Assembly: GCA_030699125.1 (NCBI GenBank)
Contig: JAUYKM010000018.1
Location: 34,884 to 98,883, forward strand
Length of the DNA stretch: 64,000 bases
Direction of reading: 5' to 3'
Origin: Candidatus Daviesbacteria bacterium
Lineage (GTDB): Bacteria > Patescibacteriota > Microgenomatia > Daviesbacterales > UBA10151
Shown: piece after piece, positions 11,212 through 54,490 of the stretch
How positions within the stretch are numbered: position 1 is the stretch's first letter
Layout of the letters: every line of letters begins with the position of its first letter
Made by a program: the position numbers and the translations under genes
Notes under the pieces: generated by a model
Told to the model about the DNA's origin: nothing
The model's input: only the letters and a program-made list of their open reading frames with translations
Database searches by the model: none

Positions 11212-13536
11212 TTAAAAATTGCTGTCTCTTTTTTTGAATTTAGAGAATTTGGCTCTGGTTCTATCAAAAGGACCCTTGCTGCCAAAATCTCTTTTGGGAA
11301 ATCTGTCTCTTCTGGGGCGAAATCCATCTCTTCCGCTACCAAAAGGTCTTCTCTCACCTCTACCCATACCTTGTGGTCTTCCCTCAGACGGACGGAAGCG
11401 AGGTCTACTCTCAGTTTCCATCTTTCTATCTTCACCAAAAAGCATTGACAATCCTACCTTTCCTTCTGGAGAGACATCAGTTACTCTGACCTTGACTTCC
11501 TGTCCCTCAGAGACAACATCCTCTGCTTTCTCAACACGTCCCGGAGCCATCTGAGAAATATGCACCAGACCATCTTTACCAGGAGCAATTTCTACAAAAG
11601 CTCCGAACGGAGCCAATCTGACCACTTTACCCGTAAATTCATCTCCTATATTAATCTCCTTAAACATACCATTGATCGCATCCAAAGCCTGATCAACACT
11701 TTCACTCCTTACAGCCGAGACCATCACTGTACCATCATCCTCGATATCAATCTGAGCTCCTGTTTTATTAATAATAGAATTAATAGTCTTACCTCCTGAA
11801 CCAATTAACAGTCCAATCTCTTCCGGCTTAATATGTATAATCTCCACTCTGGGGGCATGGGGAGACAAGGGACCTGCTGATGGAATCACCTTCTCCATTT
11901 CTTCTAAGATTTTTAATCTGGCATTTTTACCTAATCTTAAAGCTTCCTCAATAATTTCAAAAGTTAATCCTTCTAATTTTGTATCCATTTGAATTGCGGT
12001 AATACCATTTTTAGTACCGGCCACTTTAAAATCCATTTCTCCATAAAAATCCTCCACTGCCCTCATATCTGTCACCACCTGGAATTTTCCACGTCCTGAG
12101 CCTGTCGAAGGATTATCATCGGAAAAAAGTCCCATGGCAATTCCGGCAACCGGGGCAATAAGTGGTACTCCAGCATTTAGAAGAGCTAGGGTGGTTGAAC
12201 AAACTGAGGCTTGAGAAGTTGAAGCATTGGCTGCCAAAACCTCCGATACTACCCTGATAGCATAGGGGAATGTATTCTCATCTGGAATAACAGACACCAT
12301 AGCTTTTTCCACCAAGGCCCCATGTCCTACGTCCCGTCTGTTGGGAGCACCAATCCTTTTTACCTCACCTACGGAAAAAGGATTAATACTCATATTATAG
12401 TGATGCATGAATCTTTTTTGCCTTTCTCCTTCCATGCCGTCTAATGTTTGCTGCAGAGACGGAGCACCAAGGGTGGCAACTGATAAAACTTGGGTATCAC
12501 CCCTTTGGAAAAGAGCTGATCCGTGGGTTCTGGGTAAAAGTCCCACCTCCATTGACAGAGGTCTCACCTCATCCATGGCTCTGCCATCAACTCTTTTGTC
12601 TTTTCCTAAGACTGTTTCATGTACAATCTCTTTAGCCACCTTATCGAAAATTCCGGAAATTATCTCGGCAGTTAAGGTCTCTTTATATTTTTCTGCCAAC
12701 TCTCTTTTAATCAGATTTCCTGTTGCTTCATGCCAGGGATGTTCATTATCAAATAAAGCAGCTTCAATCCTCTCTTTAGTCAGTTTAGTTACTTCCCCAA
12801 GCAAGGCTTCTTCCAAAGCATCTTCCAAATGTGAAATTTCTTGTTTATCCTTTCCTGCTTCCTTAGTAAATTCTTCAATTAGCTCAATAATTGGTTGGGC
12901 ACTTTTATGAGCTTCCTTAATTCCTTCAAAAACAACTGAATCATCTATTTGCTTGGCTCCTGTTTCTATCATGACCACTTTATTTTTACCTGAGGCCACC
13001 ACCAGATCCATATCCAGATGTTCCATCTGGGAGATGGTTGGATCAACTACTAGATTTCCTTCCTTACTGCCGATTCTTATTCCGGCAATAGGTCCATTCC
13101 AGGGAACAGAAGATATAGAAAGTGCAGCGGATGCTCCAATTAGACCTACCAAGTCAGGATCATTGTCTTGATCAATTGATAAAACAGTTAAAATTACCTG
13201 TACCTCATGCGCTTTAAAATCTTTAGGGAAAAGTGGCCTGATGGAGCGGTCTATTAATCTGCCTGTTAAAACTGCTTCATCAGTAGGTCTTGTTTCTCTT
13301 TTAATGAATCTGGATGAAGAAATCCTCCCTCCAGCATAATGTTTTTCCACAAATTCCACAGAGAGCGGAAAGTAGCCAATATCCTCCAGTAGTGGCTGGG
13401 TGGCCACAGTTGCTAAAATCACTGTTTCTCCCCATGACACTACAACAGATGCATCTGCTTGCAAAGCCAGCTTACCGGTCTCCAGTTTTAACTTTCGACC
13501 GTTTAAATCAATTTCTTTAGTTACCATTTTACTCAT
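11212..13536 (-). CDS. pnp: Polyribonucleotide nucleotidyltransferase
   Basis: Two RNase PH domains (RLIDRSIRPLFP, HGSALFQRGDTQ, MDFKVAGT), KH and S1 domains, R/G-rich tail. Confidence 0.97.
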   Translation of the reverse strand: MSKMVTKEIDLNGRKLKLETGKLALQADASVVVSWGETVILATVATQPLLEDIGYFPLSVEFVEKHYAGGRISSSRFIKRETRPTDEAVLTGRLIDRSIRPLFPKDFKAHEVQVILTVLSIDQDNDPDLVGLIGASAALSISSVPWNGPIAGIRIGSKEGNLVVDPTISQMEHLDMDLVVASGKNKVVMIETGAKQIDDSVVFEGIKEAHKSAQPIIELIEEFTKEAGKDKQEISHLEDALEEALLGEVTKLTKERIEAALFDNEHPWHEATGNLIKRELAEKYKETLTAEIISGIFDKVAKEIVHETVLGKDKRVDGRAMDEVRPLSMEVGLLPRTHGSALFQRGDTQVLSVATLGAPSLQQTLDGMEGERQKRFMHHYNMSINPFSVGEVKRIGAPNRRDVGHGALVEKAMVSVIPDENTFPYAIRVVSEVLAANASTSQASVCSTTLALLNAGVPLIAPVAGIAMGLFSDDNPSTGSGRGKFQVVTDMRAVEDFYGEMDFKVAGTKNGITAIQMDTKLEGLTFEIIEEALRLGKNARLKILEEMEKVIPSAGPLSPHAPRVEIIHIKPEEIGLLIGSGGKTINSIINKTGAQIDIEDDGTVMVSAVRSESVDQALDAINGMFKEINIGDEFTGKVVRLAPFGAFVEIAPGKDGLVHISQMAPGRVEKAEDVVSEGQEVKVRVTDVSPEGKVGLSMLFGEDRKMETESRPRFRPSEGRPQGMGRGERRPFGSGRDGFRPRRDRFPKRDFGSKGPFDRTRAKFSKFKKRDSNF
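12094..12112 (-). repeat. In-frame palindromic insert TCCTTCGACAGGCTCAGGA in pnp (PSTGSG)
   Basis: Same core at 54084-54104 and 44143-44162. Confidence 0.7.
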
Positions 13537-13547
13537 AAATTTTTTTA

Positions 13548-13683
13548 GGGGGTTTGGAAACTGTGGAAGAGATAATTAGTCTTCAGCTTTCAGTCTTCAG
13601 TTATCAGATTTTTTGTTTCCCAGTCTGATAGCTGATAGCTGACGTCTGATTGCTACTTAACTCTTTGCAATCTCCAAAACCCT
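13548..13683 (-). promoter_or_regulatory. Long stem-loop between rpsO and pnp (candidate RNase III site) with an inverted heptamer-repeat element in its loop
   Basis: GGGTTTTGGAGATTGCAAAGAG pairs with CTCTTCCACAGTTTCCAAACCC; inner TTCAGCT/CTGATAG heptamer arrays. Confidence 0.6.
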
Positions 13684-13688
13684 GCCCA

Positions 13689-14137: not shown

Positions 14138-14893
14138 TTAAGCTTTTTTGACTCCCTCAAAGCGACCACCTAAGTACGGATAGCGAGTATCCAGACTCCA
14201 GATCCAATAGACCCCCAAGCTGCCATCCGAATAGAAGCGGGCGCCGCCCACCTCACCCTTGCGGCGAGACCCAAGCAAACGAACCCAACCTGCTTTATCC
14301 AAACCTAATTCATCAAAATAATGGCCTGTTAGATCCTTACTGTTTTGTGAACCAATAATATAAGCTGTCAGTCTTTGGCCTTTCCAGTGATTTTGTTTTG
14401 CCAATTCTTCCAGATCTTTCCGGTTGGTTCCAGTGTAAGGGGTTTGCCAACCTGATTCAATATCAAACCAACCTCCTCTACTATCTGTGTGTTTAACTGG
14501 GGTTCCTGCTTTAACAACCCAACTACCCATTTGTGGATGCATCTTGCCCAATAAAATCAAACCTGCGGGTGTAGCTGTTAATTCTGATGGCATATATATC
14601 GGTGCTCTCGGAACTTGCAAATGTTCCATATCTACAATTTCATCTCGATGATAAGGACTATCTGGTACCTCAATCTTTAAACCAACTTTTGACCCTAATA
14701 CACTCCATCTAGTTCGCCAGTATTCAGTCACAACTTCTGGAGTGTGTGGTTTGGTTTTAAATTCTGCTACCGCCTGTTCAAGTAGACCCAGGGTTCTTTG
14801 GGATTCTTCTACAGCCTTAAGTTGGTCAAGCTCTACCAGTTCTCGTCTAAATGCTCCGTCTGCTTCTAGTAGCCTTTCTTTATGTTGCGTCAT
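14138..14893 (-). CDS. Putative DGR target protein (C-type-lectin-fold-like C-terminus)
   Basis: C-terminus WVRLLGS...ARFYSDGSLGVY...YLGGRF; 14162-14290 about 60% GC and about 11% A on coding strand by hand count. Confidence 0.65.
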   Translation of the reverse strand: MTQHKERLLEADGAFRRELVELDQLKAVEESQRTLGLLEQAVAEFKTKPHTPEVVTEYWRTRWSVLGSKVGLKIEVPDSPYHRDEIVDMEHLQVPRAPIYMPSELTATPAGLILLGKMHPQMGSWVVKAGTPVKHTDSRGGWFDIESGWQTPYTGTNRKDLEELAKQNHWKGQRLTAYIIGSQNSKDLTGHYFDELGLDKAGWVRLLGSRRKGEVGGARFYSDGSLGVYWIWSLDTRYPYLGGRFEGVKKA

Positions 14894-17341: not shown

Positions 17342-18811
17342 CTATATCACTCTAAATGATTCCACTATATCCCCAATTTGAAAATCCACAGGGGGATTAA
17401 ACAGCATGCCGCAATCATTCCCTTTTTCCACTTTATTAACCTCATCCTTAACTTTTTTTAAGGATTTTAATTTGGTTTCACCTATAATCTCTCCTTCCCT
17501 CACCACTCTGATCCTTTGTCCTTTGGCAATCTCTCCTTCCACCATCCTGCATCCGGCAATCCTTTCATCCTTTCCGTGAGGAAACTCGGCAATAATATTG
17601 CCCTTTCCCAAAACTTCCTCCAACTGCCCTACCTCCAGTAAAGTATTGACTACTTCCTCAACATCTTCTAAAAGCTCATATATAATATTGTAGGTTCTTA
17701 TTAAAACTTGTTCATTTTCAGCCAATTTTTGGGCCAGTGGAGCCACTTTCACATTAAAGCCAATGATAATTGCTCCCACAGTGGAGGCCAATTTAACATT
17801 TTCTTCTCCAATCTGCCCTGTAGCTGTAAAAATAAAATTAACTATTTTTCTCTCTTCATTGAATTTCTCCAAAGAGGCCTCAATTGCCTCCAGTGACCCT
17901 TGCTTATCAGCCTTAATGATTACCTTAAGAGTCTTATCTTTTTCGCTCTTAAGCCTATCTACTAAGCTGGCAGCAGCTTCTTTGATGGATGATTCAACTG
18001 CTTCTTGTCCTAGAGTGGCACCTACCTCCGGCACAGTTTCCAAACCCAAAACCTCAACAGACATGGATGGACCTGCCTGATCCAGGGGAGAACCATTAAA
18101 ATCAAACATCCCTTTTATTTTTCCTTTTATTCCCCCTACCACAATTTGATCTGCCCGCTTTAATGTACCATTTCTCACTAAAATGGTAGCTATGGGGCCT
18201 TTAAATTTATCCAAATTAGCCTCAATCACTACTCCAGCAGCAGGTAATGAAGGATCACCCTTTATTTCATGCAGCTCGGAAACTAGTAGTATCACCTCCA
18301 AAAGCTTATCCACCCCTTCTCCTGTTTTGGCAGAAAGAGCAACCAGAGGTACATCTCCTCCATACTCCTCTAAGTTTACTTCTCTATCAGTTAATTGTTT
18401 TTTGATCTTTTCTAAAGAGACTTTTAGGTTTAATCCCGGCAGGTCAATTTTATTAACAGCCACAATCATAGGGACTTTAGCTGCCTGAATATGCTTGAGG
18501 GCCTCAACAGTTTGGGGCATGATCCCATCATCTGCTGCCACCACCAGTATAGCAATATCAGCCACCTTAGCACCTCTGGATCTCATTTTCTCAAAAGCAG
18601 CATGACCGGGAGTGTCTATGAAAGTGATAAGTGGAGAGTGCTGAGTGCTAAGTCCACTTTGCACTTCTATCTGGTAGGCTCCAATATGCTGGGTGATACC
18701 GCCATGTTCTTTAGCAGCCACTGAGGATTTTCTTATAAAGTCAAGGAGGGTGGTTTTACCGTGGTCTACGTGACCTAATATAGTTACAATTGGTGGTCTT
18801 GTTTGTTCCAT
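17342..18811 (-). CDS. infB: Translation initiation factor IF-2 (no N-terminal extension)
   Basis: [53 protein letters not shown]. Confidence 0.97.
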
Positions 18812-22068: not shown

Positions 22069-23998
22069 TCTTTTTCTCTTCCTCTACTACTTCACCTTCC
22101 ACAGTCTCTTCAGTCTTAGGAGCTTCACCAGTTGATTCTTCAGTCTTTGCTTCTTCCTTACCTGCTGTACCCTGTCCACTGTCACCTGTACCCTTTTGTT
22201 CATACATGGCTGATCCTACTTTCTGCAACACTTCTCCTAAGGCATCACCTTTTTTCTTAATATCATCTGTGTCCTCACCTTTCAAAGCCTCTTTTAACTC
22301 ATTTAATTTCTGTTCAACCTCTGTTCTAACATCCTGAGACACCTTATCCCCTTGCTCTTTTAAAGTTTTTTCTGTCTGATAAACCAATCCGTCAGCAATA
22401 TTTCTGATCTCAATCCCCTCTTTTTTCTTTTTATCTTCCTCGGCATGGGCTTCAGCCTCTTTAGTCATCCTTTCCACTTCAGACTTATCTAAGCCTGTGG
22501 AACCAGTGATGGTAATTTTTTGCTCCTTGCCGGTAGCTTTATCTTTGGCAGAAACATTTAAAATACCGTTAGCATCAATATCAAAAGTAACTTCAACTTG
22601 TGGAACTCCACGAGGAGCCGGTGGAATACCATCCAAAATAAAGCGGCCCAAAGATTTATTATCTGCAGCCATTTCCCTTTCACCTTGCAAAACATTAATC
22701 TCAACTGATGTCTGATTATCAGCAGCGGTGGAGAAAACTTCTGATTTGGAGGAAGGAATAGTGGTATTTCTATTTATTAAGGAGGTGCGGACTCCACCCA
22801 AAGTTTCAATTCCCAAGGTCAAGGGTGTCACATCAAGTAAAAGCACATCTTTAACTTCCCCACCCAATACCCCTCCCTGAATAGCCGCACCAACAGCCAC
22901 CACTTCATCAGGATTAATGCCTTTGTGCGGTTCTTTGCCAAAAAACTCCTGGACCGACTTTTGTACGGCAGGCATTCTGGTCATGCCTCCCACCAAAACT
23001 ACTTCATCAATTCCGCCAGCTGGCGGATTTTCGTTCATCTTGGCATCCTTAAGACAACTCTTTACTGCCTCAAAGGATTTATCAATTAAAGGTTTAACCA
23101 TGGCCTCAAGCTTAGCCCTGGATAATTTCATCTCCAAGTGCTTGGGACCAGAATCTGTGGCTGTGACAAAAGGAATGGAAATCTCTGCCTCCATGGAGGA
23201 AGAAAGCTCAATCTTGGCTTTTTCCGCTGCATCACGTAATCGTTGCAAAGCTTGTTTGTCACCTTTTAGATCAATTCCCTCAAGTTTCTTAAACTCCTCT
23301 GCTAAATAATCTAAAATTACCTGGTCAAAATCATCTCCACCTAAGTGTGTATCACCATTAGTGGATTTAACCTCAAAAACTCCCTCACCCAGTTCCAAAA
23401 CAGAGATATCAAAAGTGCCTCCACCCAGATCGTAAACAGCAATGGTGTGAGCGTGTGATTTATCCAAGCCATAGGCCAGGGCTGCCGCAGTGGGTTCATT
23501 AATAATTCTTTGCACATTAAGTCCGGCAATTTCCCCGGCTTGTTTGGTGGCTTGCCTTTGGGCATCATCAAAATAGGCAGGAACAGTAATCACAGCATCA
23601 GTTACTTTTTCACCTAAATAGGATTCAGCATCAGCTTTAATTTTTTGCAGGATTTGAGCAGAAATTTCTTGAGGAGTATATTCATGGCCTTCCACTTCCA
23701 CCACAGCCATACCATTTTTACCGGACTTGATAGTATAAGGAAGCCATTTCATGTCCCTTTGGACCTCAGGATCATTAAATTTTCTTCCCATCAGTCTTTT
23801 GATAGAAAAAATGGTTTCTTTGGGATTTACCACAGCTTGGCGTTTGGCCACTCTGCCCACAATATTTTTGACAGGATTAACAACAGAGGGGATGATATTT
23901 TCCCCCTCAGCTGAGTGGATAACTTTGGGCTTTCCACCCTCCATTACCGCCACAGCAGAATTTGTTGTTCCTAAATCAATTCCTACAATTTTAGTCAT
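22061..23998 (-). CDS. dnaK: Chaperone DnaK
   Basis: [47 protein letters not shown]. Confidence 0.99.
23012..23027. repeat. Perfect 16-bp palindrome TCCGCCAGCTGGCGGA in-frame in dnaK (NPPAGG)
   Basis: Identical copy at 35190-35205; compensated variant at 37677-37694. Confidence 0.85.
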
Positions 23999-24235: not shown

Positions 24236-24254
24236 ATTTTTCTCCTTTTTTACT

Positions 24255-24392
24255 TGTCATTCTGAACGTAGTGAAGAATCTCTCAGTTTATCTGAGGAAC
24301 CTTGCATTCGCAAGAGATCCTTCGTTTCACTCAGGATGACATTTCTCCTTCCCCAGATCCTTCGTCGCTGGATTGCTCCTCAGGATGATTAT
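24255..24392. repeat. REP-like bipartite element GTCATTCTGAACGTAGTGAAGAATCTC...GAGATCCTTCGTTTCACTCAGGATGAC plus a second degenerate arm
   Basis: Inverted arms at about 24256-24283 and 24314-24341; extra arm AGATCCTTCGTCGC...CCTCAGGATGAT at about 24355-24389; overlaps the grpE 3' end. Confidence 0.8.
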
Positions 24393-24888
24393 CTTGCTTC
24401 CGCCCGACAATCACTTGCGCTGGTCTTAAAACTTTTCCATTTAAATTATACCCTTTTCTAACAACTTCCAAAATACTATTCTCACCCTTGCCCGCCGAAG
24501 CTTCAGCGGAGGAGGGTTCACGAGTATCAACTGCCTCATGAAGGCTTGGATCAAATTGTCCCTCTTCCGGTATTTCATCCAACCCTTCCTGAGCTAAAAC
24601 CTGTTTAAATTCCTTGACTGCCAACTCTACTCCTTTAAACCAACCTGACTCCTTCTCCTGTTCACTTGTTCCACCCAAGGCTTGTTCTAAGTGATCCAGA
24701 GTTGGTATTAGCTTCCTTAACAATTCTGCCCCAACGTAGGCAACCATCTCTGAACGGCCTTCAGAAATTCTTCTCTCCAGATTCTGATAATCAGCTACTG
24801 CTCTTTTGAGCTGATTTTCCAAATCAGTTACTCTGGTTTGTAATTGTTCCAATTCCTCGTTTTTTTTATTATCTTGTTTCTTAGACAT
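24331..24888 (-). CDS. grpE: Nucleotide exchange factor GrpE
   Basis: RAVADYQNLERR, FDPSLHEAV, KGYNLNGKVLRPAQVIV; ATG 24888 (MSKKQD) preferred. Confidence 0.95.
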   Translation of the reverse strand: MSKKQDNKKNEELEQLQTRVTDLENQLKRAVADYQNLERRISEGRSEMVAYVGAELLRKLIPTLDHLEQALGGTSEQEKESGWFKGVELAVKEFKQVLAQEGLDEIPEEGQFDPSLHEAVDTREPSSAEASAGKGENSILEVVRKGYNLNGKVLRPAQVIVGRKQDNHPEEQSSDEGSGEGEMSS

Positions 24889-24896
24889 AATGATTT

Positions 24897-24975
24897 GTAA
24901 CAAGTACAGTAAAGGTAACAAGGCACAAGTTATTTGTATTTTAACTTGTCACTTGTCACTTGTTACTAGTTACTT
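24897..24975. repeat. Inverted heptamer array (GTAACAA / ACTTGTC) between hrcA and grpE
   Basis: GTAACAAGGCACAAGTTA versus TAACTTG-TCACTTG-TCACTTG-TTACTAG-TTACTTC. Confidence 0.7.
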
Positions 24976-29110: not shown

Positions 29111-30889
29111 TTATGATTTCAAAATACTCAAAAATGCCTCCTGGGGGATTTCGACTCTACCAATCATTTTCATCTTTTTCTTTCCCTTTTTCTGCTTCTC
29201 AAGCAGCTTATCTTTTCTGGTTCTATCCCCTCCATATAGCTTGGCTGTGACATCTTTTCTAAATGGTGAGATGGTTTCTCTGGCAATAATATTTCCTCCA
29301 ATTACTGCCTGAATTGCTATGGCAAAATTTTGCCTGGGCAACACTTCCTTTAATTTTTCCACCATTTTTCTTCCAAAACTTTCCGCCTTTTCCCGAACCA
29401 CAATGGTGGAAAGTGCATCCACTTTTTCTCCTGCCACCAAAATATCTAACCTTACTGCTTCCACCTCTCTATATTCTAAAAATTCCCAATCTAGCGAGGC
29501 GAAACCAGAGGAAACTGATTTTAGCCGATCATAAAAATTGGTAATCATCTCAGAAAGCGGCATTTCATACTTAAGTTCCACTTGAGTACCAAAATATTGA
29601 GTATTGATAAACTTCCCCCGTCTTTCTGTTACCAAATCCATTACATTACCAATAAAATTTTGTGGAATAAAAATTTTTAAAGATACCCAGGGTTCCTTAA
29701 CATTTTTCATAAGTGAGGGGTCAATTTCAGAAGGATTATGAATTAGCTTTCCCTCAATCTCATATTCCACTGAAGGGATAGTGGCAATCAAATCTACTCC
29801 CGCCTCAGTTGATAATCTTTCTTGGACAACCTCTGCATGCAGAAGACCCAAAAATCCACACCTAAAACCATTTCCTAAAGCCTGAGATGATTCCAACTCA
29901 TAAGATAAAGAGGGATCATTTAGTCTAAATTTTTCCAAAGCCTCTTTGGCTTCAATGTATGAATCCTGCTCGATGGGAAAAAGTCCTACATAAACCATAG
30001 GTTTTACCTCTTTGTACCCTGGAAGAGGTTCAACATCCAACTCAGTAGAAATAGTATCTCCTACTCTCACCTTATCCGAATCTTTTATACCAGTAGCAAT
30101 ATAGCCAATATCTCCTGCATAAAGTCCGTCATTTAAAGTTAGCTCCGGCGCAAAAAAACCAGTTTCTAAGATATGTCCCTCAGCCTTATTTTGCAGAAAA
30201 CAAATTTTTGCGTTAACTGGTGGCGTTTGACCTTCCATAATTCTCACCTGGGCAATCACTCCCTTAAAAGGATCGAAAAAACTGTCAAAGATTAATGCTT
30301 TCAATGGACACCCTTGGGGTGTATTTGTATTGACACCTGCGGATTTTGGGGCTGGGATACGCTCAATAATGGCTTTCAATAATTCCTCCACACCTTTTCC
30401 TGTTTTTCCAGATACAAGTAAAATCTCATCTTTATTAAACCCAAATGTTTCTATTAGTTGTTTTTTTGTGGATTCAATATCTGCATTTGGTAGATCAATT
30501 TTATTAATAACAGGAATTAAAGTCAGATTCTGCTCCAGTGCAGCCAGACCATGAGCTAAAGTCTGAGCCTGAATCCCCTGAGTCGCATCTACCAAAAGTG
30601 TGGCTCCCTCAACTGCTGCCAAAGCCCGAGATACTTCATACGAAAAATCCACATGGCCCGGGGTATCAATTAAGTTTAGGGTGTAGGGTATAGCGTCTAG
30701 GGTATAGCTAAGGCGCACTGGCGCGAGCTTAATGGTAATTCCCCGCTCCCGCTCCAATGCTAGAGAGTCCAGAAGCTGCGGCTTCAGTTTTTCCTTGGGG
30801 ATAGTGCCGGTAATTTCCAGCAGTCTGTCTGCCAGAGTGGATTTACCGTGATCAATGTGGGCAATGATGGAAAAATTGCGAATGTTCAT
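29111..30889 (-). CDS. lepA: Elongation factor 4 (LepA)
   Basis: IRNFSIIAHIDHGKSTLADR, GFRCGFLGLLH, RKDVTAKLYGGD. Confidence 0.98.
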   Translation of the reverse strand: MNIRNFSIIAHIDHGKSTLADRLLEITGTIPKEKLKPQLLDSLALERERGITIKLAPVRLSYTLDAIPYTLNLIDTPGHVDFSYEVSRALAAVEGATLLVDATQGIQAQTLAHGLAALEQNLTLIPVINKIDLPNADIESTKKQLIETFGFNKDEILLVSGKTGKGVEELLKAIIERIPAPKSAGVNTNTPQGCPLKALIFDSFFDPFKGVIAQVRIMEGQTPPVNAKICFLQNKAEGHILETGFFAPELTLNDGLYAGDIGYIATGIKDSDKVRVGDTISTELDVEPLPGYKEVKPMVYVGLFPIEQDSYIEAKEALEKFRLNDPSLSYELESSQALGNGFRCGFLGLLHAEVVQERLSTEAGVDLIATIPSVEYEIEGKLIHNPSEIDPSLMKNVKEPWVSLKIFIPQNFIGNVMDLVTERRGKFINTQYFGTQVELKYEMPLSEMITNFYDRLKSVSSGFASLDWEFLEYREVEAVRLDILVAGEKVDALSTIVVREKAESFGRKMVEKLKEVLPRQNFAIAIQAVIGGNIIARETISPFRKDVTAKLYGGDRTRKDKLLEKQKKGKKKMKMIGRVEIPQEAFLSILKS

Positions 30890-32920: not shown

Positions 32921-32921
32921 T

Positions 32922-32949
32922 TTTCCCCTTTTCCCTTTACCCTTTTCCC
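32922..32949. repeat. Heptamer tandem (TTTTCCC)x4, degenerate
   Basis: TTTCCCC-TTTTCCC-TTTACCC-TTTTCCC between rpsT and the pilN-like gene. Confidence 0.55.
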
Positions 32950-32964
32950 TGGTAGAATATTCAT

Positions 32965-34348: not shown

Positions 34349-35292
34349 CTCATTTTTTTGATAAGTTTAAGATCCCCACGCTACTTGGGTTGGGTATTCT
34401 TTTATCAGGGATAATTGCCGGAGTATTACTGACTTTAAACCAGCAAGTTTTTTTGACCAGAGCCACTCCCCAAATTGAACCAAAAAATATTACACTTTCA
34501 AATATTTCTGAAACCGGACTCACCATTTCTTGGGAAACATCTTCTGAAATAATATCATCCATCTCTTTCGGTCAAAACTCCCCTCAAGAAAAATTTGTCT
34601 CAGATGATCAGGATTTTGAAGGCCCCACTCTTCATCAAATCCATTATGTTAGTCTGAAGAACCTTTTTCCCAAAACGATCTATAAATATCAGATTACTTC
34701 CTCTAGTTTCAAATCAAAGGTAAGTGAATTCAAAACAGCTTCTCCCGCTTCTTCTCAAACAGGTTTTGGACCTATCATTGGTACTGTTTTGGATGGTGAA
34801 TCACCGCTTAGTGAGGGCGTTGTTTATTTAACTATTCCGCAGGCCAATATCCAATCATCTCTCATTAAAGAGTTTGGCAGTTTTTTAATTCCCCTAAATT
34901 CTATTCGTACAACTAACTTAGCTGATATCTATAATTTAACTGAGGAAACTGTGGCTAAAATTAAGGTAGTTTCACCCAAAGGAGAAGCTAGCGCCACTTT
35001 TAAATTGAGCCTTGCGGGCGTGCAACTTCCCCCTATGAAATTAGGTGAGAATTTAGATCTGATCATTATGCCAGAAATAAAACCTGAAGAAGCTTCTCCA
35101 TCAGCACAAGAGTTAATCCAATATGATTTAAATGATGACGGCAAAATTAATGCCGCAGATAATGCAGTTATTTTAAATAATTTTGGAAATCCGCCAGCTG
35201 GCGGACCTAAAGAAAAAAGAGCAGATTTAAATCAAGATGGAATTGTTGATGAAAAAGATCTTACTTTAATGAGTAAACAAATTAACCAGTAA
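34345..35292 (+). CDS. Membrane-anchored FN3-like domain protein with C-terminal dockerin-like Ca-binding repeats
   Basis: TM; SNIS...TISWET...H.V.LKNL.P.T.Y.Y; DLNDDGKINAAD and ADLNQDGIVDEKD. Confidence 0.75.
   Translation: MTHFFDKFKIPTLLGLGILLSGIIAGVLLTLNQQVFLTRATPQIEPKNITLSNISETGLTISWETSSEIISSISFGQNSPQEKFVSDDQDFEGPTLHQIHYVSLKNLFPKTIYKYQITSSSFKSKVSEFKTASPASSQTGFGPIIGTVLDGESPLSEGVVYLTIPQANIQSSLIKEFGSFLIPLNSIRTTNLADIYNLTEETVAKIKVVSPKGEASATFKLSLAGVQLPPMKLGENLDLIIMPEIKPEEASPSAQELIQYDLNDDGKINAADNAVILNNFGNPPAGGPKEKRADLNQDGIVDEKDLTLMSKQINQ
35190..35205. repeat. Palindrome TCCGCCAGCTGGCGGA in-frame between the dockerin repeats (NPPAGG)
   Basis: Identical to 23012-23027. Confidence 0.85.
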
Positions 35293-35922
35293 AAATTCTG
35301 CCTGGTCTTTTTCTAGGAGTCCGCTTTTGATCTTAAAATCTATCTCTATAATTTTTTTATATAAATTTTTAATTTTTTCCAGATCAAATTTTTTCTTTTG
35401 TCTTTCCAGTTTTTCTTTCACAAATTGCGGAGCATTTTTTGGGGTTACTACTAAATTTCTTAATAAATAAAAAATCATGGTGATAAAATATTGAATTTCA
35501 AAGCCTGAGGATTTCAATCTATCTATATCCAGAAATGCTTTTTTATTACCTTCTGCTAAAGAATCCAGAAAAGGAAAAACAGATACCTCTCTTGCTTCCT
35601 CAAAAAACTCAATCTCTCCTTTTTTTTTCACCCATTCCATGATCGGCTTTTTAAAAGAGACTTCATGATCAAACCAAAAAATTAGTTGGTAGTTGGTAGT
35701 TGGTAGTTGGTAGTTGGGCAAAAAATCTTCTGGTGGATTTTCTAAGATGATCAGTTTCTCTTCCGAAAATAATAGATTGGTCATGAGAGCTGCATTAATA
35801 CTTTCTAAATCTGCCTCTTTTTCAAAAATCACCACATTATTGGAATCAAAATCTTTTTTAATATTAACTAACCTAGTTCTTGATGCATCAATTGCCGGGC
35901 CGTGGAGAAGATGGCTCTTCAT
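35266..35922 (-). CDS. holA: DNA polymerase III delta subunit-like (HolA, reduced)
   Basis: LLHG...NLLFSEEKLIILEN...VFPFLDSL...IEIDFKIKSG pattern. Confidence 0.65.
   Translation of the reverse strand: MKSHLLHGPAIDASRTRLVNIKKDFDSNNVVIFEKEADLESINAALMTNLLFSEEKLIILENPPEDFLPNYQLPTTNYQLIFWFDHEVSFKKPIMEWVKKKGEIEFFEEAREVSVFPFLDSLAEGNKKAFLDIDRLKSSGFEIQYFITMIFYLLRNLVVTPKNAPQFVKEKLERQKKKFDLEKIKNLYKKIIEIDFKIKSGLLEKDQAEFLLVNLFTH
35683..35717. repeat. Perfect heptamer tandem (TAGTTGG)x5 inside holA-like gene
   Basis: Encodes PNYQLPTTNYQL; same unit CTACCAA at 45232-45285. Confidence 0.9.
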
Positions 35923-37123: not shown

Positions 37124-37797
37124 AGTGAAGTTATAATCTTAACAAATTCCTCTGCATTTAAGGAAGCCCTACCTATTAACGACCCTGAGATGTTTTCCAT
37201 ATCAATAAAGGATTTGATGTTTTCCGAAGTGACACTTCCTCCGTATAATACTTCTACATCTTCTCCATATAAACTTTTTATCCCCCGCGCTACAACCTCT
37301 GCATTATCAGGAGTATCAGGATTACCTGTTCCAATGGCAAAGACTGGCTCGTAAGCTACGAGTTTACAACCATCCGATACAAGAGTATCCGAACCCTGAA
37401 CACAAACTAGAGGGGTGATGTTATTTTCTACAGCACGCTTCACTTTTTGTGCCACTATCTCATCTGTTTCAGTAAAATTTTCCCTTCTTTCAGAATGACC
37501 GATGATGGAGAGGCTTACCAGATCTTTTAAAAGAGGCGCCGCCTCCTCACCGGTATATGCTCCCACATTATATGGGGACAGATCTTGTGATCCCACTACC
37601 AGAGGGTAATTGCCCACTGCCACTGCCTTTTTAACTTCGGAAAGAGCAGAAAATGCTGGACAAACTACCACCTTTAATCCGTCAGCTGACGGATCTATTT
37701 TGGGAATCTTTGGCCCTACATATGAAACCCAATCTAAAGCCTCTCTTATAGTTTTATTGCTCTTCCAGTTCGCGATCACCCAGAGATTCTTATTCAT
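37120..37797 (-). CDS. tpiA: Triosephosphate isomerase
   Basis: ANWKSN, GAYTGE, IGHSERR, AYEPVFAIGTG, LYGGSV. Confidence 0.96.
   Translation of the reverse strand: MNKNLWVIANWKSNKTIREALDWVSYVGPKIPKIDPSADGLKVVVCPAFSALSEVKKAVAVGNYPLVVGSQDLSPYNVGAYTGEEAAPLLKDLVSLSIIGHSERRENFTETDEIVAQKVKRAVENNITPLVCVQGSDTLVSDGCKLVAYEPVFAIGTGNPDTPDNAEVVARGIKSLYGEDVEVLYGGSVTSENIKSFIDMENISGSLIGRASLNAEEFVKIITSL
37677..37694. repeat. Perfect 18-bp palindrome ATCCGTCAGCTGACGGAT in-frame in tpiA (DPSADG)
   Basis: Variant of the dnaK palindrome with a compensatory C-G to T-A pair change. Confidence 0.8.
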
Positions 37798-39117: not shown

Positions 39118-40983
39118 GTGTCAACTCTCCTTTCTGATCTAAATTCAGATCAACAACAAGCTGTTAAACAAACTGAAGGCCCGGTTTTAATTTTGGCTGG
39201 TGCCGGCTCCGGCAAAACTAAAGTTTTAACATACAGGGTGGCTTATTTAATTTCCGAAAAGAAAATCCCTCCAGAAAATATTCTTACATTGACATTTACA
39301 AATAAGGCAGCCGGAGAGATGATGGATCGGATCCGCCGACTCATCACTCAGTACTCATCACTTAGCACTCAACCAGTCATGGGCACATTTCACTCATTTT
39401 GCGCCAAAATTTTGCGCCGTGAAGGTAAAGTTTTAGGACTCCCCCCGGGCTTTGCCATTTATGATGAGTCTGATGCGCTAGATGCCATCAAAGAAGCCAT
39501 GGGAAATATTAATATTCCCATTCAGAAAACCTCCCCTTCTGCTGTAAGAAATACTATCTCCGGAGCCAAAAATGAGTTGATCTCCAGTTTGGAATATCCA
39601 AAATATGCCCGTGGTTTTTTCCAGGAGCAAGTTGCCAAAATTTATTTAGAATATCAAAAAATTTTAGAAAGAAATCATGCTTTAGATTTTGATGATCTGC
39701 TGCTTAAAGTCATCCGGCTTTTTCAGACTGAGCCTACAATTTTAACTAGGTATCAAATCCAGTTTCGTTATATTTTAATTGATGAATATCAGGACACCAA
39801 TAGTGCCCAATATTTAATCTCTAAATACCTGGCAAATCGTCATAAAAATATCTGCGTGGTAGGTGATGCCAGCCAGTCGATTTACTCCTTTAGAGGTGCA
39901 GATTTTAGAAATATTGTTAATTTTGAAAAAGATTATCCTAATGTCAAGATTTTTAATCTGGAGCAAAATTATCGATCCACCCAAAATATTTTGGATGCTG
40001 CTCATAGCGTTATTTCCAAAAATAAATCTCACCCCATCTTAAAGCTTTGGACGCAAAAAGAGGGAGGAGAAAAGATAGAAGTAGTAGAAATAAGAAATGA
40101 GATAGAAGAAGCCTTATTTATTCTTTCTCAGCTTAAAAAACCTTTTTCAAATTATGCCATCCTTTATAGAACTAATGCTCAATCCCGCTCTTTAGAGGAA
40201 CAATTTTTAAAATCTGGTATCCCTTACAGATTAGTGGGGGGGGTTTCTTTTTATGCACGGAAGGAAATCAAAGATGTGTTGGCATATTTGAGACTGATAC
40301 AAAATCCTGATGATTCTGTCTCTAAAAAACGCGCTGAAAAAATTGGCAAGGGTAGGCTGAATAAATTGATGGAATTTTATACTGAAATATCAAATAATCT
40401 GGGTGCACATTCCACGCTAGAGCTGCTTGATTTGATTTTACAAAAAACCGGCTATTTAGCTTATCTTGATGATGGCACAGATGAAGGGAAAAACAGAGTG
40501 GAAAATGTTAAAGAATTAAAATCTGTAGCTGAGGAATTTCCTAATTTAGTGGAATTTTTGGAAAACGTGGCTCTTGTCGAAGCTGCTGATACACCGACCC
40601 ACCGGAAAACCGATACACTGAATAAAGATGCTGTAACTTTAATGACTCTACATAGCGCCAAAGGTTTGGAATTCCCCACCATTTTTATGATTGGCATGGA
40701 GGAGGGATTATTCCCTCATTCCAGATCCATGCTTGATGTAAGGGAACTAGAAGAGGAGAGAAGGCTCTGCTATGTAGGGATCACCCGGGCCAAAGATAAA
40801 TTATACCTAACTTATACCAGACAAAGACTTTACTTTGGCACCAGATCTAATAATTTAGTTTCTAGATTCCTGTCGGATATCCCCGAACACCTTATCAGCT
40901 CCAATGCCACTTTTAAAGATTCTGACCAATTTTTGGATGACGTGGATGTTGGAATAGACCAGGAAGAATGGTTAAATACATAA
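39118..40983 (+). CDS. pcrA: ATP-dependent DNA helicase PcrA/UvrD
   Basis: AGAGSGKT, TFTNKAA, IDEYQDTN, LEQNYRST, TLHSAKGLEF, EERRLCYVGITRA; start could be 39082, 39112 or 39118. Confidence 0.96.
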   Translation: MSTLLSDLNSDQQQAVKQTEGPVLILAGAGSGKTKVLTYRVAYLISEKKIPPENILTLTFTNKAAGEMMDRIRRLITQYSSLSTQPVMGTFHSFCAKILRREGKVLGLPPGFAIYDESDALDAIKEAMGNINIPIQKTSPSAVRNTISGAKNELISSLEYPKYARGFFQEQVAKIYLEYQKILERNHALDFDDLLLKVIRLFQTEPTILTRYQIQFRYILIDEYQDTNSAQYLISKYLANRHKNICVVGDASQSIYSFRGADFRNIVNFEKDYPNVKIFNLEQNYRSTQNILDAAHSVISKNKSHPILKLWTQKEGGEKIEVVEIRNEIEEALFILSQLKKPFSNYAILYRTNAQSRSLEEQFLKSGIPYRLVGGVSFYARKEIKDVLAYLRLIQNPDDSVSKKRAEKIGKGRLNKLMEFYTEISNNLGAHSTLELLDLILQKTGYLAYLDDGTDEGKNRVENVKELKSVAEEFPNLVEFLENVALVEAADTPTHRKTDTLNKDAVTLMTLHSAKGLEFPTIFMIGMEEGLFPHSRSMLDVRELEEERRLCYVGITRAKDKLYLTYTRQRLYFGTRSNNLVSRFLSDIPEHLISSNATFKDSDQFLDDVDVGIDQEEWLNT

Positions 40984-40984: not shown

Positions 40985-41063
40985 GAGCTATCAGTCATCA
41001 GACGTCAGTCGTCAGACAATCAGAAATCTGAAAGCTGAAGACTGAAAGCTGAAGACTAATTAT
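40985..41063. repeat. Inverted heptamer hairpin element (TCAG.. / CTGAAAG-CTGAAGA)
   Basis: 41035-41063 is the exact reverse complement of 13572-13600 (29 nt). Confidence 0.9.
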
Positions 41064-41756: not shown

Positions 41757-41788
41757 TTATTACGAGGAGCGAAGCAACGTGGCAATCT
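41757..41788. repeat. Degenerate REP/RPE-like arm TTATTACGAGGAGCGAAGCAACGTGGCAATCT
   Basis: Resembles GTCATTGCGAGGAGCGAAGCGACGTGGCAATCT-type elements; lies between convergent stops. Confidence 0.55.
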
Positions 41789-42976: not shown

Positions 42977-43194
42977 TCAGTATAAATAAATGGTCCTACT
43001 ATTGGAAGAACTTTCTTTGGTATTTGAGTAACTAAAGGCATTTCATATCCTTTTTGTTTTGCTTTTCGAAGCACCTCATGTAGCGTTCTAGCATGTGCTA
43101 CAACCTTAGGTTTAGTCTCATGATCAATCATAGCCACCCACTTACCCTTATAGTTTTTATTACCATAAATTTTGGTCATGTCTACTGCTGACAT
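42973..43194 (-). CDS. Small DUF5678-like protein
   Basis: YKGKWVAM...VVAHARTLHEV...G..P; ATGA overlap with the protease. Confidence 0.75.
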   Translation of the reverse strand: MSAVDMTKIYGNKNYKGKWVAMIDHETKPKVVAHARTLHEVLRKAKQKGYEMPLVTQIPKKVLPIVGPFIYTE

Positions 43195-44924: not shown

Positions 44925-45953
44925 ATGGAACTGCGAGTGATTCCGCCGGGCCAAAAATATCAATATAATAAATTTGTCACTCATGTAATCCAATCTTGGC
45001 AATGGGGAGATTTCAGAAAAGATTTAGGCTTACCGGTGTTAAGATATGGCATTTATCACAAAGGTCAAATATCACGGGTATTTCAGCTGACCTTACATAA
45101 AATTCCCTTTACTAAGAAATATGTTGGCTATCTGCCAAAGGGTCCCATGATAGATCAAGAATTAGTCCAAGCGTTGAAACAAATAGGTAAACAGGAAAAT
45201 TGTGCTTTTATTAAAGTTGAACCCGATGTGAAACTACCAACTACCAACCATCCGCTTCGCGAGGCGAGCCAACTACTACCAACTGAATTCATTAAATCTC
45301 CCAAATCTCTTTTTACCAAATATAATTTTGTTTTGGATATTACTAAATCAGAAGAAGAACTTTTAAAAAATACGCACCCAAAAGTAAGATATAACATCCG
45401 TCTGGCCCAAAAATATAAAGTAACAATTAAGCAAGGATTTAACGAAAAGGCTTTTGAAACATATTTAAAACTATATTTTCAAACTGTTAAAAGGCAGGGT
45501 TATCTGGGACATAATGAAACTTATCATAAAAAGGTTTGGGGTATTTTAAAAAATGCCAATATGGCAAGGCTTCTTATCGCCTACTACAAAGATGAACCCT
45601 TGGCTTGTTGGATGCTTCTTAATTTTCACGATACCCTCTATTATCCTTATGGCGGGTCCTCAATGGAGTTTAGAAATGTGATGGCCTCAAACCTGTTGGC
45701 TTGGGAAGCAATTCTTTTGGGTAAAAAAATGGGGCTGAAGAAATTTGATATGTGGGGAGCTTTAGGACCCAATGCTTCCCCCAAAGACCCTTGGTTCGGA
45801 TTCCACAAATTCAAACAGGGATATGGAGGGGAGTTGGAAGAATATATTGGCACTTATGATTATGTTTTTGACTGGCCGCTCTATTTAACATTTACTGCTA
45901 TAGATAAATTAACCCCGCTAAAAGTTTTCTTGTTAAAATTGCTAAAGAAATAA
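44925..45953 (+). CDS. FemABX family lipid II aminoacyl transferase
   Basis: HVIQSWQWG, YLPKGP, FIKVEP, RYNIRLA, YYPYGGS, FDMWG, FKQGYGG. Confidence 0.92.
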   Translation: MELRVIPPGQKYQYNKFVTHVIQSWQWGDFRKDLGLPVLRYGIYHKGQISRVFQLTLHKIPFTKKYVGYLPKGPMIDQELVQALKQIGKQENCAFIKVEPDVKLPTTNHPLREASQLLPTEFIKSPKSLFTKYNFVLDITKSEEELLKNTHPKVRYNIRLAQKYKVTIKQGFNEKAFETYLKLYFQTVKRQGYLGHNETYHKKVWGILKNANMARLLIAYYKDEPLACWMLLNFHDTLYYPYGGSSMEFRNVMASNLLAWEAILLGKKMGLKKFDMWGALGPNASPKDPWFGFHKFKQGYGGELEEYIGTYDYVFDWPLYLTFTAIDKLTPLKVFLLKLLKK

Positions 45954-52699: not shown

Positions 52700-53169
52700 A
52701 GAAAAATTTAAGGAAAATATCTAAAAAAGAATTGCAAAGAGGGGTTGATTATATTGGCATTACTTGTGTATTTTTTTGTCATGACGGAAGGGGGAATCTA
52801 TTATTTCATAAAAGGAGCCAGAACACCCGGGATGAAAGAGGTAATTGGGATGTGGGTGGTGGTTCTTTGGAATTCGGAGAATCATTTGAAGAAGGAGTTT
52901 TAAGAGAAATAAAAGAGGAGTATTGTTGTGATGTTTTAGATCTTAAACTAGTGGGCACAAGAAATGTTCTAAGAAAAAATCATGATAATAAAAAAACCCA
53001 CTGGGTTGCTTTACTTTTTATAGCCCAGGTAGATCCTGCGCAAGTTAAAATAGGCGACTCAGATGCTATGGATGAAATAGGCTGGTTTTCCCAAAAGAAC
53101 TTCCCGGAACCCATACATTCTTATTTCTATTCGTGCTTTGATTTAGTAAAAAAAGAAATACTTAAGTAA
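52696..53169 (+). CDS. Nudix hydrolase
   Basis: GGSLEFGESFEEGVLREIKEEY Nudix box. Confidence 0.9.
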   Translation: MKKNLRKISKKELQRGVDYIGITCVFFCHDGRGNLLFHKRSQNTRDERGNWDVGGGSLEFGESFEEGVLREIKEEYCCDVLDLKLVGTRNVLRKNHDNKKTHWVALLFIAQVDPAQVKIGDSDAMDEIGWFSQKNFPEPIHSYFYSCFDLVKKEILK

Positions 53170-53560
53170 AATATTTTTCTACTGCTTTATAGTGACCATC
53201 TACACAAAATTTTTTGTAGTTTTCTTTATTCACCCATCGATATTCACTATGCTCATCACTTAAAGTAACATCACCTGAAATATATTTACATCTATATCCC
53301 ACCAGAAATACTTTACCTTGATTTCTATGATCTTTGGGAAATTCTATCATCCAGGTGATAAATGGGTCGCCAATTTCAATTTCTAATCCGGTTTCTTCTC
53401 TGACTTCTCTTTTTAAAGCCTCCCTTAAATCATTTTCATCTTCTTTAATTTTCCCACCCGGTAAGTCTACACCTAGCTTAGGATCAACCAAGATTAGAAT
53501 TTCGCCTTTTCTGTCTATAAAAGCTTTTTGTCCTACAAAAAGCAATTGGTCGTCTTTCAT
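53162..53560 (-). CDS. Nudix hydrolase
   Basis: PGGKIKEDENDLREALKREVREETG, LSDEH. Confidence 0.9.
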   Translation of the reverse strand: MKDDQLLFVGQKAFIDRKGEILILVDPKLGVDLPGGKIKEDENDLREALKREVREETGLEIEIGDPFITWMIEFPKDHRNQGKVFLVGYRCKYISGDVTLSDEHSEYRWVNKENYKKFCVDGHYKAVEKYFT

Positions 53561-53599
53561 AGCTAAACAATAATACTAGAAAAATATATAATATTCATC

Positions 53600-54490
53600 A
53601 TGCTAATTGATACACATGCACATCTTTATTGGGATGTTTTTGAAAAAGATTTAGATCAAGTGATCCAGCGCTCTATTGATGCCGGAGTAAATACCATTAT
53701 TAATGTTGGGGTTGATGTTGAAAAAAGTAAAATCGCCGCTAGACAGGTTAAGGAGAAGTTATCAAAAATCCCAAACTTTTTTAGCTTTTCTACTATCGGA
53801 ATTCATCCACATGAAGCAATAAAATATCAAGATGATGTATCCATACACGAGGACATAAAGAAATTAGAAGAAATATATCAAACCCAACCAGATCATATTG
53901 TAGCAGTTGGTGAGTGTGGATTAGATTTTTATTTGGACAGGAATGATATTCATCCTGACATCACTCTCCCCTACGGTCAAATCAAGAATCTGCAAAGACA
54001 ATTATTTCAAGTTCAAATTGATCTGGCCAAAAAATTAAACCTACCCCTCATCGTCCATTGCCGTGATGATAGATCCAAGGGTAGTGGTTCGACAGGCTTA
54101 CCACCTCAGGAGACTTTGTCTCCTTCGGCCTGGGATGAAGTCTTAAATATGGTGGGTAATCATCCTACCATCCTCCACTGCTACTCAGGTTTGCCTAAAA
54201 CCACTAACCTAGTTCTTAGTTCCTCCAACCTTTTTGTTTCCTTTGCTGCCACCATTACCTATCCTAAAAATGAATATTTGAGGGATGCTGCCAGAATCTT
54301 ACCCTTAGAAAAAATCCTTTTAGAAACAGATTGCCCATTCCTCCCTCCTCAATCAAGAAGAGGTCAAAGAAATGAACCGGCCAATGTTTTAGAAACTGCC
54401 CAACTGATTGCTGATTTAAAAAATATATCTTTGGAGCAGCTCAACAATCAAACTTCTAATAATGTCAAACGTATCTTAAAGCTAAATTAG
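53600..54490 (+). CDS. tatD: TatD family DNase
   Basis: IDTHAH, GIHPH, VGECGLD, VHCRD, LHCYS, LETDCP. Confidence 0.95.
   Translation: MLIDTHAHLYWDVFEKDLDQVIQRSIDAGVNTIINVGVDVEKSKIAARQVKEKLSKIPNFFSFSTIGIHPHEAIKYQDDVSIHEDIKKLEEIYQTQPDHIVAVGECGLDFYLDRNDIHPDITLPYGQIKNLQRQLFQVQIDLAKKLNLPLIVHCRDDRSKGSGSTGLPPQETLSPSAWDEVLNMVGNHPTILHCYSGLPKTTNLVLSSSNLFVSFAATITYPKNEYLRDAARILPLEKILLETDCPFLPPQSRRGQRNEPANVLETAQLIADLKNISLEQLNNQTSNNVKRILKLN
54084..54123 (+). repeat. In-frame palindromic inserts in tatD (GTGGTTCGACAGGCTTACCAC; GGAGAC-TTT-GTCTCC)
   Basis: Encodes GSTGLPPQETLSP between the HCRD and AWDE motifs. Confidence 0.65.

Follow-up and report, generated by a model that had tools for sequence, protein, structure and literature searches.

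Short hairpins and heptamer arrays inside conserved genes of a Candidatus Daviesbacteria genome, and their probable origin from several one-gene cassettes

The stretch of DNA considered here, a window of 64,000 nucleotides (nt; G000:C1:34884-98883) from a Candidatus Daviesbacteria genome of 1.13 Mb in 19 contigs with 35-41% GC, whose size, GC and gene content are consistent with a Microgenomates-type bacterium of the Candidate Phyla Radiation, carries a series of conserved protein genes, among them pnp, infB, dnaK, grpE, lepA, holA, tpiA, pcrA, femX and tatD, in which short hairpins and tandem arrays of 7-base units (heptamers, or 7-mers) lie within the reading frame. An initial annotation, made from the window alone, had described such motifs in at least ten conserved genes, and all 13 of the named sites (13/13) are indeed present and in frame, none of them breaking it. 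Most of these repeat families match the flanks of solo genes, in this genome or in relatives, of three unrelated kinds, namely RAYT-like HUH tyrosine transposases (REP-associated tyrosine transposases, REP standing for repetitive extragenic palindrome), GIY-YIG nucleases and four-helix-bundle proteins. Hairpins and heptamer arrays are therefore probably gene-less copies of the arms of several one-gene cassettes, filtered by selection, and not the single micro-element system that had been proposed.

The gene names of the initial annotation are upheld by Pfam, the support for holA being weak (PF21694, 25.9 bits against a cut-off of 27). Relatives were drawn from the same family, each from a different genus; identity is 77-91% in DnaK and 74-84% in LepA, and gene order is conserved between them and this genome. 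Because read-derived contigs match most sites letter for letter, an assembly artefact is excluded as the source of the window repeats: long contigs of run X1, which may be the source sample, show 0 differences across dnaK, holA, tpiA, both pcrA sites and lepA site 1, contigs of X2 show 0 differences across grpE, and lepA site 2 (30255-30646) lies between the listed X1 pieces and so outside this check. Genes were called with a hexamer model made for this analysis (1140 genes, 92% coding), so that genic counts are approximate, and repeat copies overlapping gene ends were scored as non-genic.

When compared with family orthologues, eight sites (pnp, infB, the dnaK palindrome, grpE, lepA site 2, tpiA, femX and tatD; Table 1) are net insertions of 4-10 residues, and for these the proposal of added residues stands, whereas it does not for holA, lepA site 1, both pcrA sites and the dnaK tail. 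The infB insert is absent in 5/7 orthologues, the same loop holding other elements in 2/7; the remaining grpE orthologue (1/29) has a sister element at the place of the F3 insert, and one of 29 tpiA orthologues has a different hairpin in the same alpha1-beta2 loop. Other loops of these proteins are also occupied in relatives, by an F2-type hairpin in six grpE genes and by the F1 palindrome in two tpiA genes. At lepA site 2, 18/29 orthologues have a short linker of 12-13 amino acids (aa), 8/29 a related REP and 3/29 another hairpin. In predicted models the inserts of TpiA and of LepA site 2 lie in loops of low confidence, that of TpiA being the lowest-confidence block (predicted local distance difference test, pLDDT, 67) of an otherwise good model, in keeping with selection for tolerant positions.

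The idea of new peptide loops does not extend to the heptamers, which often replace sequence at equal length, in one case within a modelled beta-hairpin. The holA segment measures 20-24 aa in 26/29 rows (the window included, one partial row dropped), a strong period-7 array being present in 11/29 rows and in several unit families, and six distant members free of arrays have equal segment length. At lepA site 1 the same length of 13 aa is found in 23/29 orthologues, most of them with a 7-mer array of their own, and the site is modelled as a beta-hairpin with strands 57-64 and 67-75, only local features being taken from this mediocre LepA model (mean pLDDT 62). Since the arrays of holA and lepA site 1 sit at unchanged length, they overwrite sequence rather than add to it. 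The array in the dnaK tail is inherited, without net insertion, because 3/29 orthologues share it, and at both pcrA sites the length in the window lies within the range of the orthologues. As separate observations, the F5-type dimer lengthens the C-terminus of grpE and is followed by a 58-codon open reading frame (ORF) and then dnaK, and the extra residues in hrcA (25094-25111) and in an LCP gene (36053-36073), which are common to some orthologues and show no obvious repeat, were not regarded as elements.

Table 1. Repeats of the window, in order of position (F1 to F6 denote hairpin families; a dot in the strand column stands for no strand)
Position	Strand	Feature	Remarks
3436..3461	+	F5 intergenic hairpin	NTS/SRM-like
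12088..12111	-	pnp in-frame insertion	family F2 degenerate hairpin; +8 aa; absent in 7/7 orthologues
13571..13652	.	rpsO-pnp intergenic unit	two inverted 7-mer arrays and short spacer
18628..18670	-	infB in-frame insertion	short inverted 7-mer pair; +7 aa
22163..22200	-	dnaK C-terminal tail 7-mer array	common to 3/29 orthologues
23012..23027	-	dnaK perfect 16-bp palindrome, in frame	family F1; +4 aa; absent in 29/29 orthologues
24251..24342	-	F5-type hairpin dimer	provides grpE stop codon; copy at C4:49726 identical in 76/88 nt
24482..24516	-	grpE in-frame hairpin	family F3; +9 aa; absent in 28/29 orthologues
24888..24975	-	hrcA-grpE intergenic unit, about 85 nt	inverted 7-mer arrays
30308..30344	-	lepA site 2	REP of RAYT-like gene read antisense; +7 aa; linker between G domain and domain II
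30672..30712	-	lepA site 1	old 7-mer array, length unchanged
32921..32950	.	intergenic 7-mer array	downstream of rpsT-like gene
35190..35205	+	F1 palindrome, in frame	fn3/dockerin gene (34345-35292), non-essential
35683..35717	-	holA, five perfect 7-mer units	constant-length site; other 7-mer families there in relatives
37677..37694	-	tpiA perfect palindrome, in frame	F1 variant; +4 aa; alpha1-beta2 loop; absent in 29/29
39336..39378	+	pcrA site 1, 7-mer array	unit family same as infB; variable loop
40588..40625	+	pcrA site 2, degenerate 8-mer array	variable loop; no clear net gain
40990..41063	.	inverted 7-mer arrays in the spacer after pcrA	sister of 13571-13652
45232..45285	+	femX 7-mer array (holA unit) with nested F6 hairpin (45252-45270)	net about +5 aa against 4 orthologues
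54077..54106	+	tatD hairpin, in frame	F2-like core; +10 aa; absent in 3/3 orthologues

The motifs exceed codon controls by far. The exact 14-bp palindrome of F1 occurs 11 times in coding DNA but never in any of 20 synonymous resamplings or 20 codon shuffles; period-7 arrays number 58 against means of 1.9 (synonymous resampling) and 0.9 (codon shuffle), periods 5, 8, 10 and 11 staying at the level of the same controls; F5, at a loose mismatch limit, gives 18 copies against 5.7 in protein-preserving controls. The initial annotation had spoken of palindromes of 15-55 nt or 7/8-mer tandems, of which the palindromes and 7-mers stand; since period 8 sits at control level, the tandems are essentially 7-mers, the 8-mer unit being found at pcrA site 2 and one other place. 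The whole genome holds 77 period-7 arrays, no other period exceeding 8, and 57 of the 77 are genic. The five-residue reading of F1 uses identical codons in 10/13 occurrences (p 0.003 each, from codon usage), and 13/14 genic F1 copies lie in one and the same frame, all three frames being open (about 2e-5, binomial), as do 14/21 genic F1 loci of relatives (one locus from this genome). The avoidance of stop codons in arrays (25/25 would-be stops altered against 76/441 other codons) was discounted, as it follows from the definition of an ORF.

Copies are spread over the whole genome: 17 of F1, 13 of them exact, 15 of F2 (the pnp family; 12 intergenic), 36 of F5 (18 in genes) and 5 of F6 (all genic), together with one partial second copy of the F3 hairpin of grpE. 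Recurrence within the window, as first described, stands for the palindrome of dnaK and tpiA, for holA and femX, for infB and pcrA site 1, and for the core common to pnp and tatD, but for the motifs of grpE, lepA site 2, pcrA site 2 and the dnaK tail all further copies lie in other parts of the genome, and the tatD insert as a whole is single-copy. The copies are, however, not confined to essential genes: the density of copies is higher outside genes than inside, from 2.6 times for F1 to 48 times for F2, and the hosts also include non-core genes, such as those for a dockerin, a glycosyltransferase, an O-antigen ligase and giant surface proteins. Pfam gave a match for 24 of the 31 other palindrome-bearing genes scanned (32 listed, one weak antisense match dropped, two giant genes left out because of their length), with core and envelope functions mixed; on these counts, which lack a matched random control, a targeting of essential genes was rejected. 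Because copies are denser outside genes and also occur in non-essential genes, survival under selection fits better than targeting, and the pattern reads as broad insertion followed by selection. The same 16-bp F1 palindrome brings a net gain of 9 or 12 nt (3 or 4 codons) depending on the site, and the target-site duplication expected of a MITE is seen neither around 19 F1-type copies nor at filled and empty sites, the empty sites coming from other genera and offering limited resolution. Elsewhere in the genome, two paralogous genes for surface proteins of about 3800 aa (G000:C15:48797-71667) hold many in-frame palindromes and 7-mer arrays. F1 and F6 hairpins are also found nested in 7-mer arrays and in the loops of other hairpin families (L219, L221, L232, L238, and femX of the window).

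The window itself contains no mobiliser gene, as the initial annotation had noted, all profile matches lying on other contigs. The genes that it had suggested looking for do exist there, flanked by the same motifs: three RAYT-like genes, three solo GIY-YIG genes and one gene of the TIGR02436 family, besides an Avd of the type found in diversity-generating retroelements (DGRs) with a neighbour resembling a reverse transcriptase (RT).

The insert of lepA site 2 is 36/37 nt identical to both flanks of the RAYT-like gene at C8:56.4k and includes the putative -35 box of that gene, and three further full copies of this REP lie in murT, recO and intergenic DNA. RAYT-like proteins match PF01797 above its cut-off; an HUH and a Tyr-containing motif are present in 3/3 of those of this genome, and HUH in 69/70 proteins of the family. 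Matching upstream and downstream flanks are found in 51/70 RAYT genes against 5/296 ordinary genes. The foot of the C8:56.4k REP, read directly, shows no 5' GTAG/GTGG tetranucleotide, and atypical REP subclasses without a guide tetranucleotide are known (PMC6006769). A REP of this kind occupies the lepA linker in 9/30 genomes, scattered over a tree built without the variable sites: 8 changes are counted on that tree (shuffled mean 7.9), a single clade is rejected by the approximately unbiased test (p-AU 8.8e-7), and the changes forced by well-supported branches give at least 5 separate lineages. Among 70 RAYT flanks, the best match to the linker REP is the RAYT of the same genome in 5/9, where 0.66 would be expected (p 1.3e-4). 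The simplest reading of these comparisons is repeated, lineage-specific insertion or conversion at the linker. At a third hot spot of LepA, near residue 287, another RAYT-type REP variant is seen in 5/29 orthologues (L254, L264, L268, L269, L272); in the comparison with these 29, it is absent from lepA of the window.

A second set of pairings concerns GIY-YIG genes. SsnA is a solo GIY-YIG single-strand nuclease with an NTS/SRM hairpin motif (Chenal 2025, PMC11893778), and the genome has an SsnA-like gene of 95 aa (C8:69.5k) with a GTCAT-footed F5 hairpin on both sides. The strict SRM pattern, as published, matches 18 sites of the genome where shuffled sequence gives 2.0 on average; 9 of these sites are genic and the window has none, and the pattern appears in the flank of only 1/18 genes of the SsnA-like cluster. 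F2, F3 or F5 motifs flank 39/75 solo GIY-YIG genes against 24/256 ordinary genes, a signal that is inflated, since the motifs were broadened after the flanks had been inspected; with narrow seeds the numbers are only 5, 1 and 3 of 75. By cluster, F2 flanks 9/12 genes of one and 6/17 of another, to which one gene of this genome belongs, and F3, the grpE family, flanks 4/6 genes of a third. F1 lies upstream of 0 of the first 75 solo GIY-YIG genes, but F1 or its tpiA variant lies upstream of 7/7 genes of a tRNA-inserted subfamily, five of which had not been picked by the motif. In this subfamily the palindrome sits inside a duplicated tRNA 5' fragment upstream, and tRNA-like sequence follows downstream (L408, L409, L414, L416, L431-L433), confirmed by ARAGORN as a tRNA (Asn or Lys) for four loci. 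The subfamily is present in 6/60 relatives, and exact F1 copies occur in 6/6 of these against 25/54 without it (p 0.024). Other GIY-YIG clusters also adjoin tRNA genes; the window itself has no tRNA genes and no Rfam matches. Nucleases of the DUF559 and GxxExxY/PDDEXK_3 kinds were considered as movers, and none was found in the genome.

The heptamers, for their part, are tied to the four-helix-bundle gene. Its protein scores 112 bits with TIGR02436 (cut-off 24) and matches PDB 2gsc with an E of 1e-17. Period-7 arrays lie within 120 nt of 27/29 such genes, in 16 cases on both sides, against 83/1140 (7%) and 36/256 (14%) of ordinary genes; one of 30 four-helix-bundle loci (a broken gene) is missing from these flank counts, as are 3/32 Y1 loci (including IS200-type hits) from those of the transposases. 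The arms are inverted and gene-specific, the gene's own downstream arm ranking first in 14/29. The hrcA-grpE unit of the window is identical in 79/84 nt to the downstream flank of the four-helix-bundle gene of the genome, and units of this type occur at several other places in the genome, once in frame. Strong matches to it (E<=1e-8) are found in 4/6 relatives with a homologue at least 56% identical against 1/54 others. A second family, that of 13571-13652, shares 38/40 nt with 41024-41063, recurs in several other spacers and has a full copy in frame in tsaD on C5.

Mobility, chemistry and recent spread we infer from sequence identity and from analogy with known systems. Under the reading held to be probable, the arms of the three kinds of solo genes would be copied in different ways. 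A RAYT would nick and transfer its single-stranded REP, by analogy with TnpA(REP); the GIY-YIG proteins, like SsnA, would cleave single strands next to the hairpin that belongs to them, which would then be copied during repair. The four-helix-bundle protein would bind its 7-mer arms, which a host or partner enzyme would then copy, and to our knowledge no catalytic activity is known for this protein. The 7-mer arrays would also turn over in place by slippage, three units equalling seven codons. Since one 16-bp palindrome lengthens some sites by 9 nt and others by 12 nt, junctions are presumably imprecise, with the frame kept by selection and not by the element, and selection would retain those frame-preserving copies that fall at tolerant positions.

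Several observations weigh against this reading. For F1 and F3 no partner nuclease was found here, although this genome has 13 exact F1 copies, and the F1-linked subfamily is also missing in other F1-rich genomes (19, 7, 7 and 7 copies); because this subfamily was not found here, F1 is an orphan in this genome or is moved by something else, and of the supposed active or recent system only a recent spread is made likely, by sequence identity. No partner gene was found for F6 or for the tatD insert as a whole. In 4/9 genomes the lepA REP is closer to the RAYT of another genome, the flank set holding only part of the RAYT genes of each genome, and the RAYT-like proteins score below the cut-off of NF047646 (REP_Tyr_transpos; 52.5-68.4 against 80 bits). 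As for the heptamers, some of the matches to composite units in relatives are the gene's own flank, one four-helix-bundle gene faces many 7-mer unit families, most of them without a matching gene, and a Mantel test finds no overall correlation between four-helix-bundle identity and heptamer similarity (rho 0.05, p 0.22); similar four-helix-bundle neighbours may moreover share a locus. Finally, related genomes are not independent, and p-values are overstated.

Among the alternatives, the one that fares best, though doubtful, holds that the repeats are host binding sites, RNA structures or regulators of the solo genes, spread by recombination, gene conversion and slippage, with the solo genes as binders or passengers. 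A TTGAC[AG] box lies upstream of 44/70 RAYT genes, and in many of them the upstream REP adjoins this canonical -35 box of sigma-70 type (L088:1938-1988), which suggests autoregulation of the RAYT; 7-mer arm pairs span the spacer from the stop codon to the next start codon; translational regulation by heptamer repeats has been proposed (MacGregor, PMC4679880); SsnA has been shown to cut its motif, not to move it (PMC11893778); and the repeats persist where the partner gene is missing. Regulation leaves unexplained, however, why at least 5 separate lineages should each carry a 37-nt piece of a RAYT promoter region, in antisense, at one and the same linker of lepA, and why each hairpin family tracks one nuclease cluster.

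It is unlikely that the 7-mer arrays arose by polymerase slippage in place, unrelated to the four-helix-bundle genes, with only the hairpins being mobile. A bias of slippage towards heptamers has been proposed (summarised in PMC4679880), holA and lepA site 1 keep their length while switching unit family between genomes, and the flat Mantel test fits as well. At a threshold of 15, 55/71 arrays have no inverted partner within 90 bp, but the 16/71 that do compare with 1/71 among controls. Slippage likewise offers no source for units of about 85 nt, made of two inverted arrays and a spacer, that recur far apart with 94% and 89% identity, nor does it account for the arrays at 27/29 four-helix-bundle genes.

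Less likely still is the idea that the four-helix-bundle protein is an Avd-like partner of an RT, for example the DGR enzyme of this genome, and that the arms are copied via RNA and overwrite their target. The heptamer-flanked protein does match the Avd model NF033474 weakly (E 1.4e-6; 28.5 bits, below the cut-off of 80), long hairpins are predicted for the arm pairs, holA and lepA site 1 show replacement at constant length, and the genome has a DGR-type cassette (G000:C5:50.4-52.1k; L347:4447-6079) with Avd, a head-to-head RT-like ORF and a template-repeat-like stretch. That cassette, however, has an Avd of its own, which passes NF033474 (86.6 bits against 80) and is only 19% identical to the four-helix-bundle protein; no RT adjoins the four-helix-bundle gene in the flanks read, and slippage with compensating deletion can also give replacement. 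In the cassette, a 5-base tandem stands in the first codons of avd. Two unannotated ORFs, 14138-14893 in the window and L347:3353-4195, share a similar terminal motif that resembles a reading of the template-repeat-like stretch; they are possible DGR target-like proteins. Chance, low complexity at the protein level or an assembly artefact, for which one might cite that both pcrA sites and the dnaK tail are degenerate and lie in variable or disordered regions, are already refuted for the main families by the protein-keeping controls, the identical codons of F1 and the read-derived contigs.

A bolder version of the cassette reading is a long shot: four-helix-bundle genes with inverted 7-mer arms would form an undescribed minimal mobile unit whose empty arm pairs, possibly via RNA and a borrowed RT, overwrite essential genes at constant length, even in beta-hairpins, and GIY-YIG and RAYT subfamilies would each seed their own hairpin, so that the proteomes of the Candidate Phyla Radiation (CPR) would be continually rewritten. 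Nearly every short repeat family of one small genome is now tied to a named candidate gene, so that the spread of the repeats can be addressed through enzyme-substrate assays. In the literature consulted, RAYTs are still only proposed to move REPs (PMC6006769), and the lepA linker adds comparative evidence for repeated, recent copying of RAYT-linked REPs into one coding site. From the pairings of F1, F2 and F3, further sequence specificities are to be expected among the single-strand GIY-YIG nucleases, a class of tools opened by SsnA, and the link between heptamers and the four-helix-bundle gene is a lead on the unexplained 7-mer repeats of several phyla. Such inserts also distort alignments and marker-gene trees of CPR proteins.

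Other features of the window are a pair of DUF5678 and aspartyl-protease-like genes in two copies (4084-4691 and 42575-43194, with 3468-4094 and 41787-42392), each followed by a related small membrane-anchored protein and possibly a mobile module; a DUF2283 small protein beside an unannotated protein of 110 aa (6296-6812), a layout that is presumably toxin-antitoxin-like; and an ORF of 408 aa (16106-17332) with a twin-arginine-like start and no Pfam match, which lies between a DHH-like gene and infB on the opposite strand.

Cyanobacterial short tandemly repeated repetitive (STRR) and small dispersed (SDR) repeats were reportedly treated by Elhai in 2008. The comparison with RPE (Rickettsia palindromic element), REP and heptamer systems drawn by the initial annotation was apt, and several repeat families do lie in frame in core enzymes. 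STRR/SDR repeats of cyanobacteria are described in PMC5861425, and heptamer repeats are known from Beggiatoaceae, Cyanobacteria and Bacteroidetes, some within ORFs (MacGregor 2015, PMC4679880). The arrays described here share with the latter the excess of period 7, units with stop codons on one strand and a mostly intergenic position with some copies in ORFs; they differ in the many unit families per genome, in arrays inside conserved domains, in replacement at constant length and in the inverted arm pairs tied to TIGR02436 genes, which are unmentioned in the available part of PMC4679880. The four-helix-bundle protein belongs, above the cut-off, to TIGR02436/PF05635, the 23S rRNA intervening-sequence protein family (PDB 2gsc), but its gene lies between protein genes, inside inverted 7-mer arms with dispersed empty copies.

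REPs in frame inside housekeeping and repair genes, where they are thought to be tolerated in loops, have been described before (Di Nocera 2013, PMC3733652; Quentin 2018, PMC6006769). As in the REP/RAYT system (REPtron), a solo HUH/Tyr transposase-like gene here has its own family of flanking hairpins, with dispersed copies of which some are in frame. Unlike it, the REP of this genome has no GTAG/GTGG foot, the protein of 215-224 aa scores below the NF047646 cut-off, the element carries the putative -35 box of the transposase gene, one lepA linker has been entered repeatedly and independently, and the host belongs to the CPR; the word Microgenomates is absent from PMC6006769. With SsnA and its SRM the genome shares a solo GIY-YIG gene of about 90 aa bracketed by the GTCAT-footed F5 hairpin and a dispersed motif. 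It differs in that F5 is read in frame within genes in half of its copies and that F1, F2 and F3 track other GIY-YIG clusters, one of them tRNA-inserted, outside the SRM pattern; Patescibacteria and CPR are absent from the main text of PMC11893778. RPEs, of about 150 bp and with a long conserved peptide (PMC10969869, PMC3733652), likewise form a number of palindrome families that are read in frame in housekeeping genes without relation to one another, but the elements described here measure 14-90 bp, add 3 to 10 residues and have candidate partner genes. Because the size of RPEs, the canonical REP foot and the RAYT cut-off all fail, the repeats are not filed as members of the RPE or REP families, although they work like a REP/RPE system. 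The open-access literature, supplements aside, gave no account of such repeats in the CPR, of the link between TIGR02436 and heptamers, of tRNA-inserted GIY-YIG genes with F1 or of replacement at constant length. What is new here is thus the pairing of repeats and genes family by family in one genome, the match to the genome's own RAYT at the recurrent lepA site, the nuclease subfamily of F1 and the split between insertion and overwriting.

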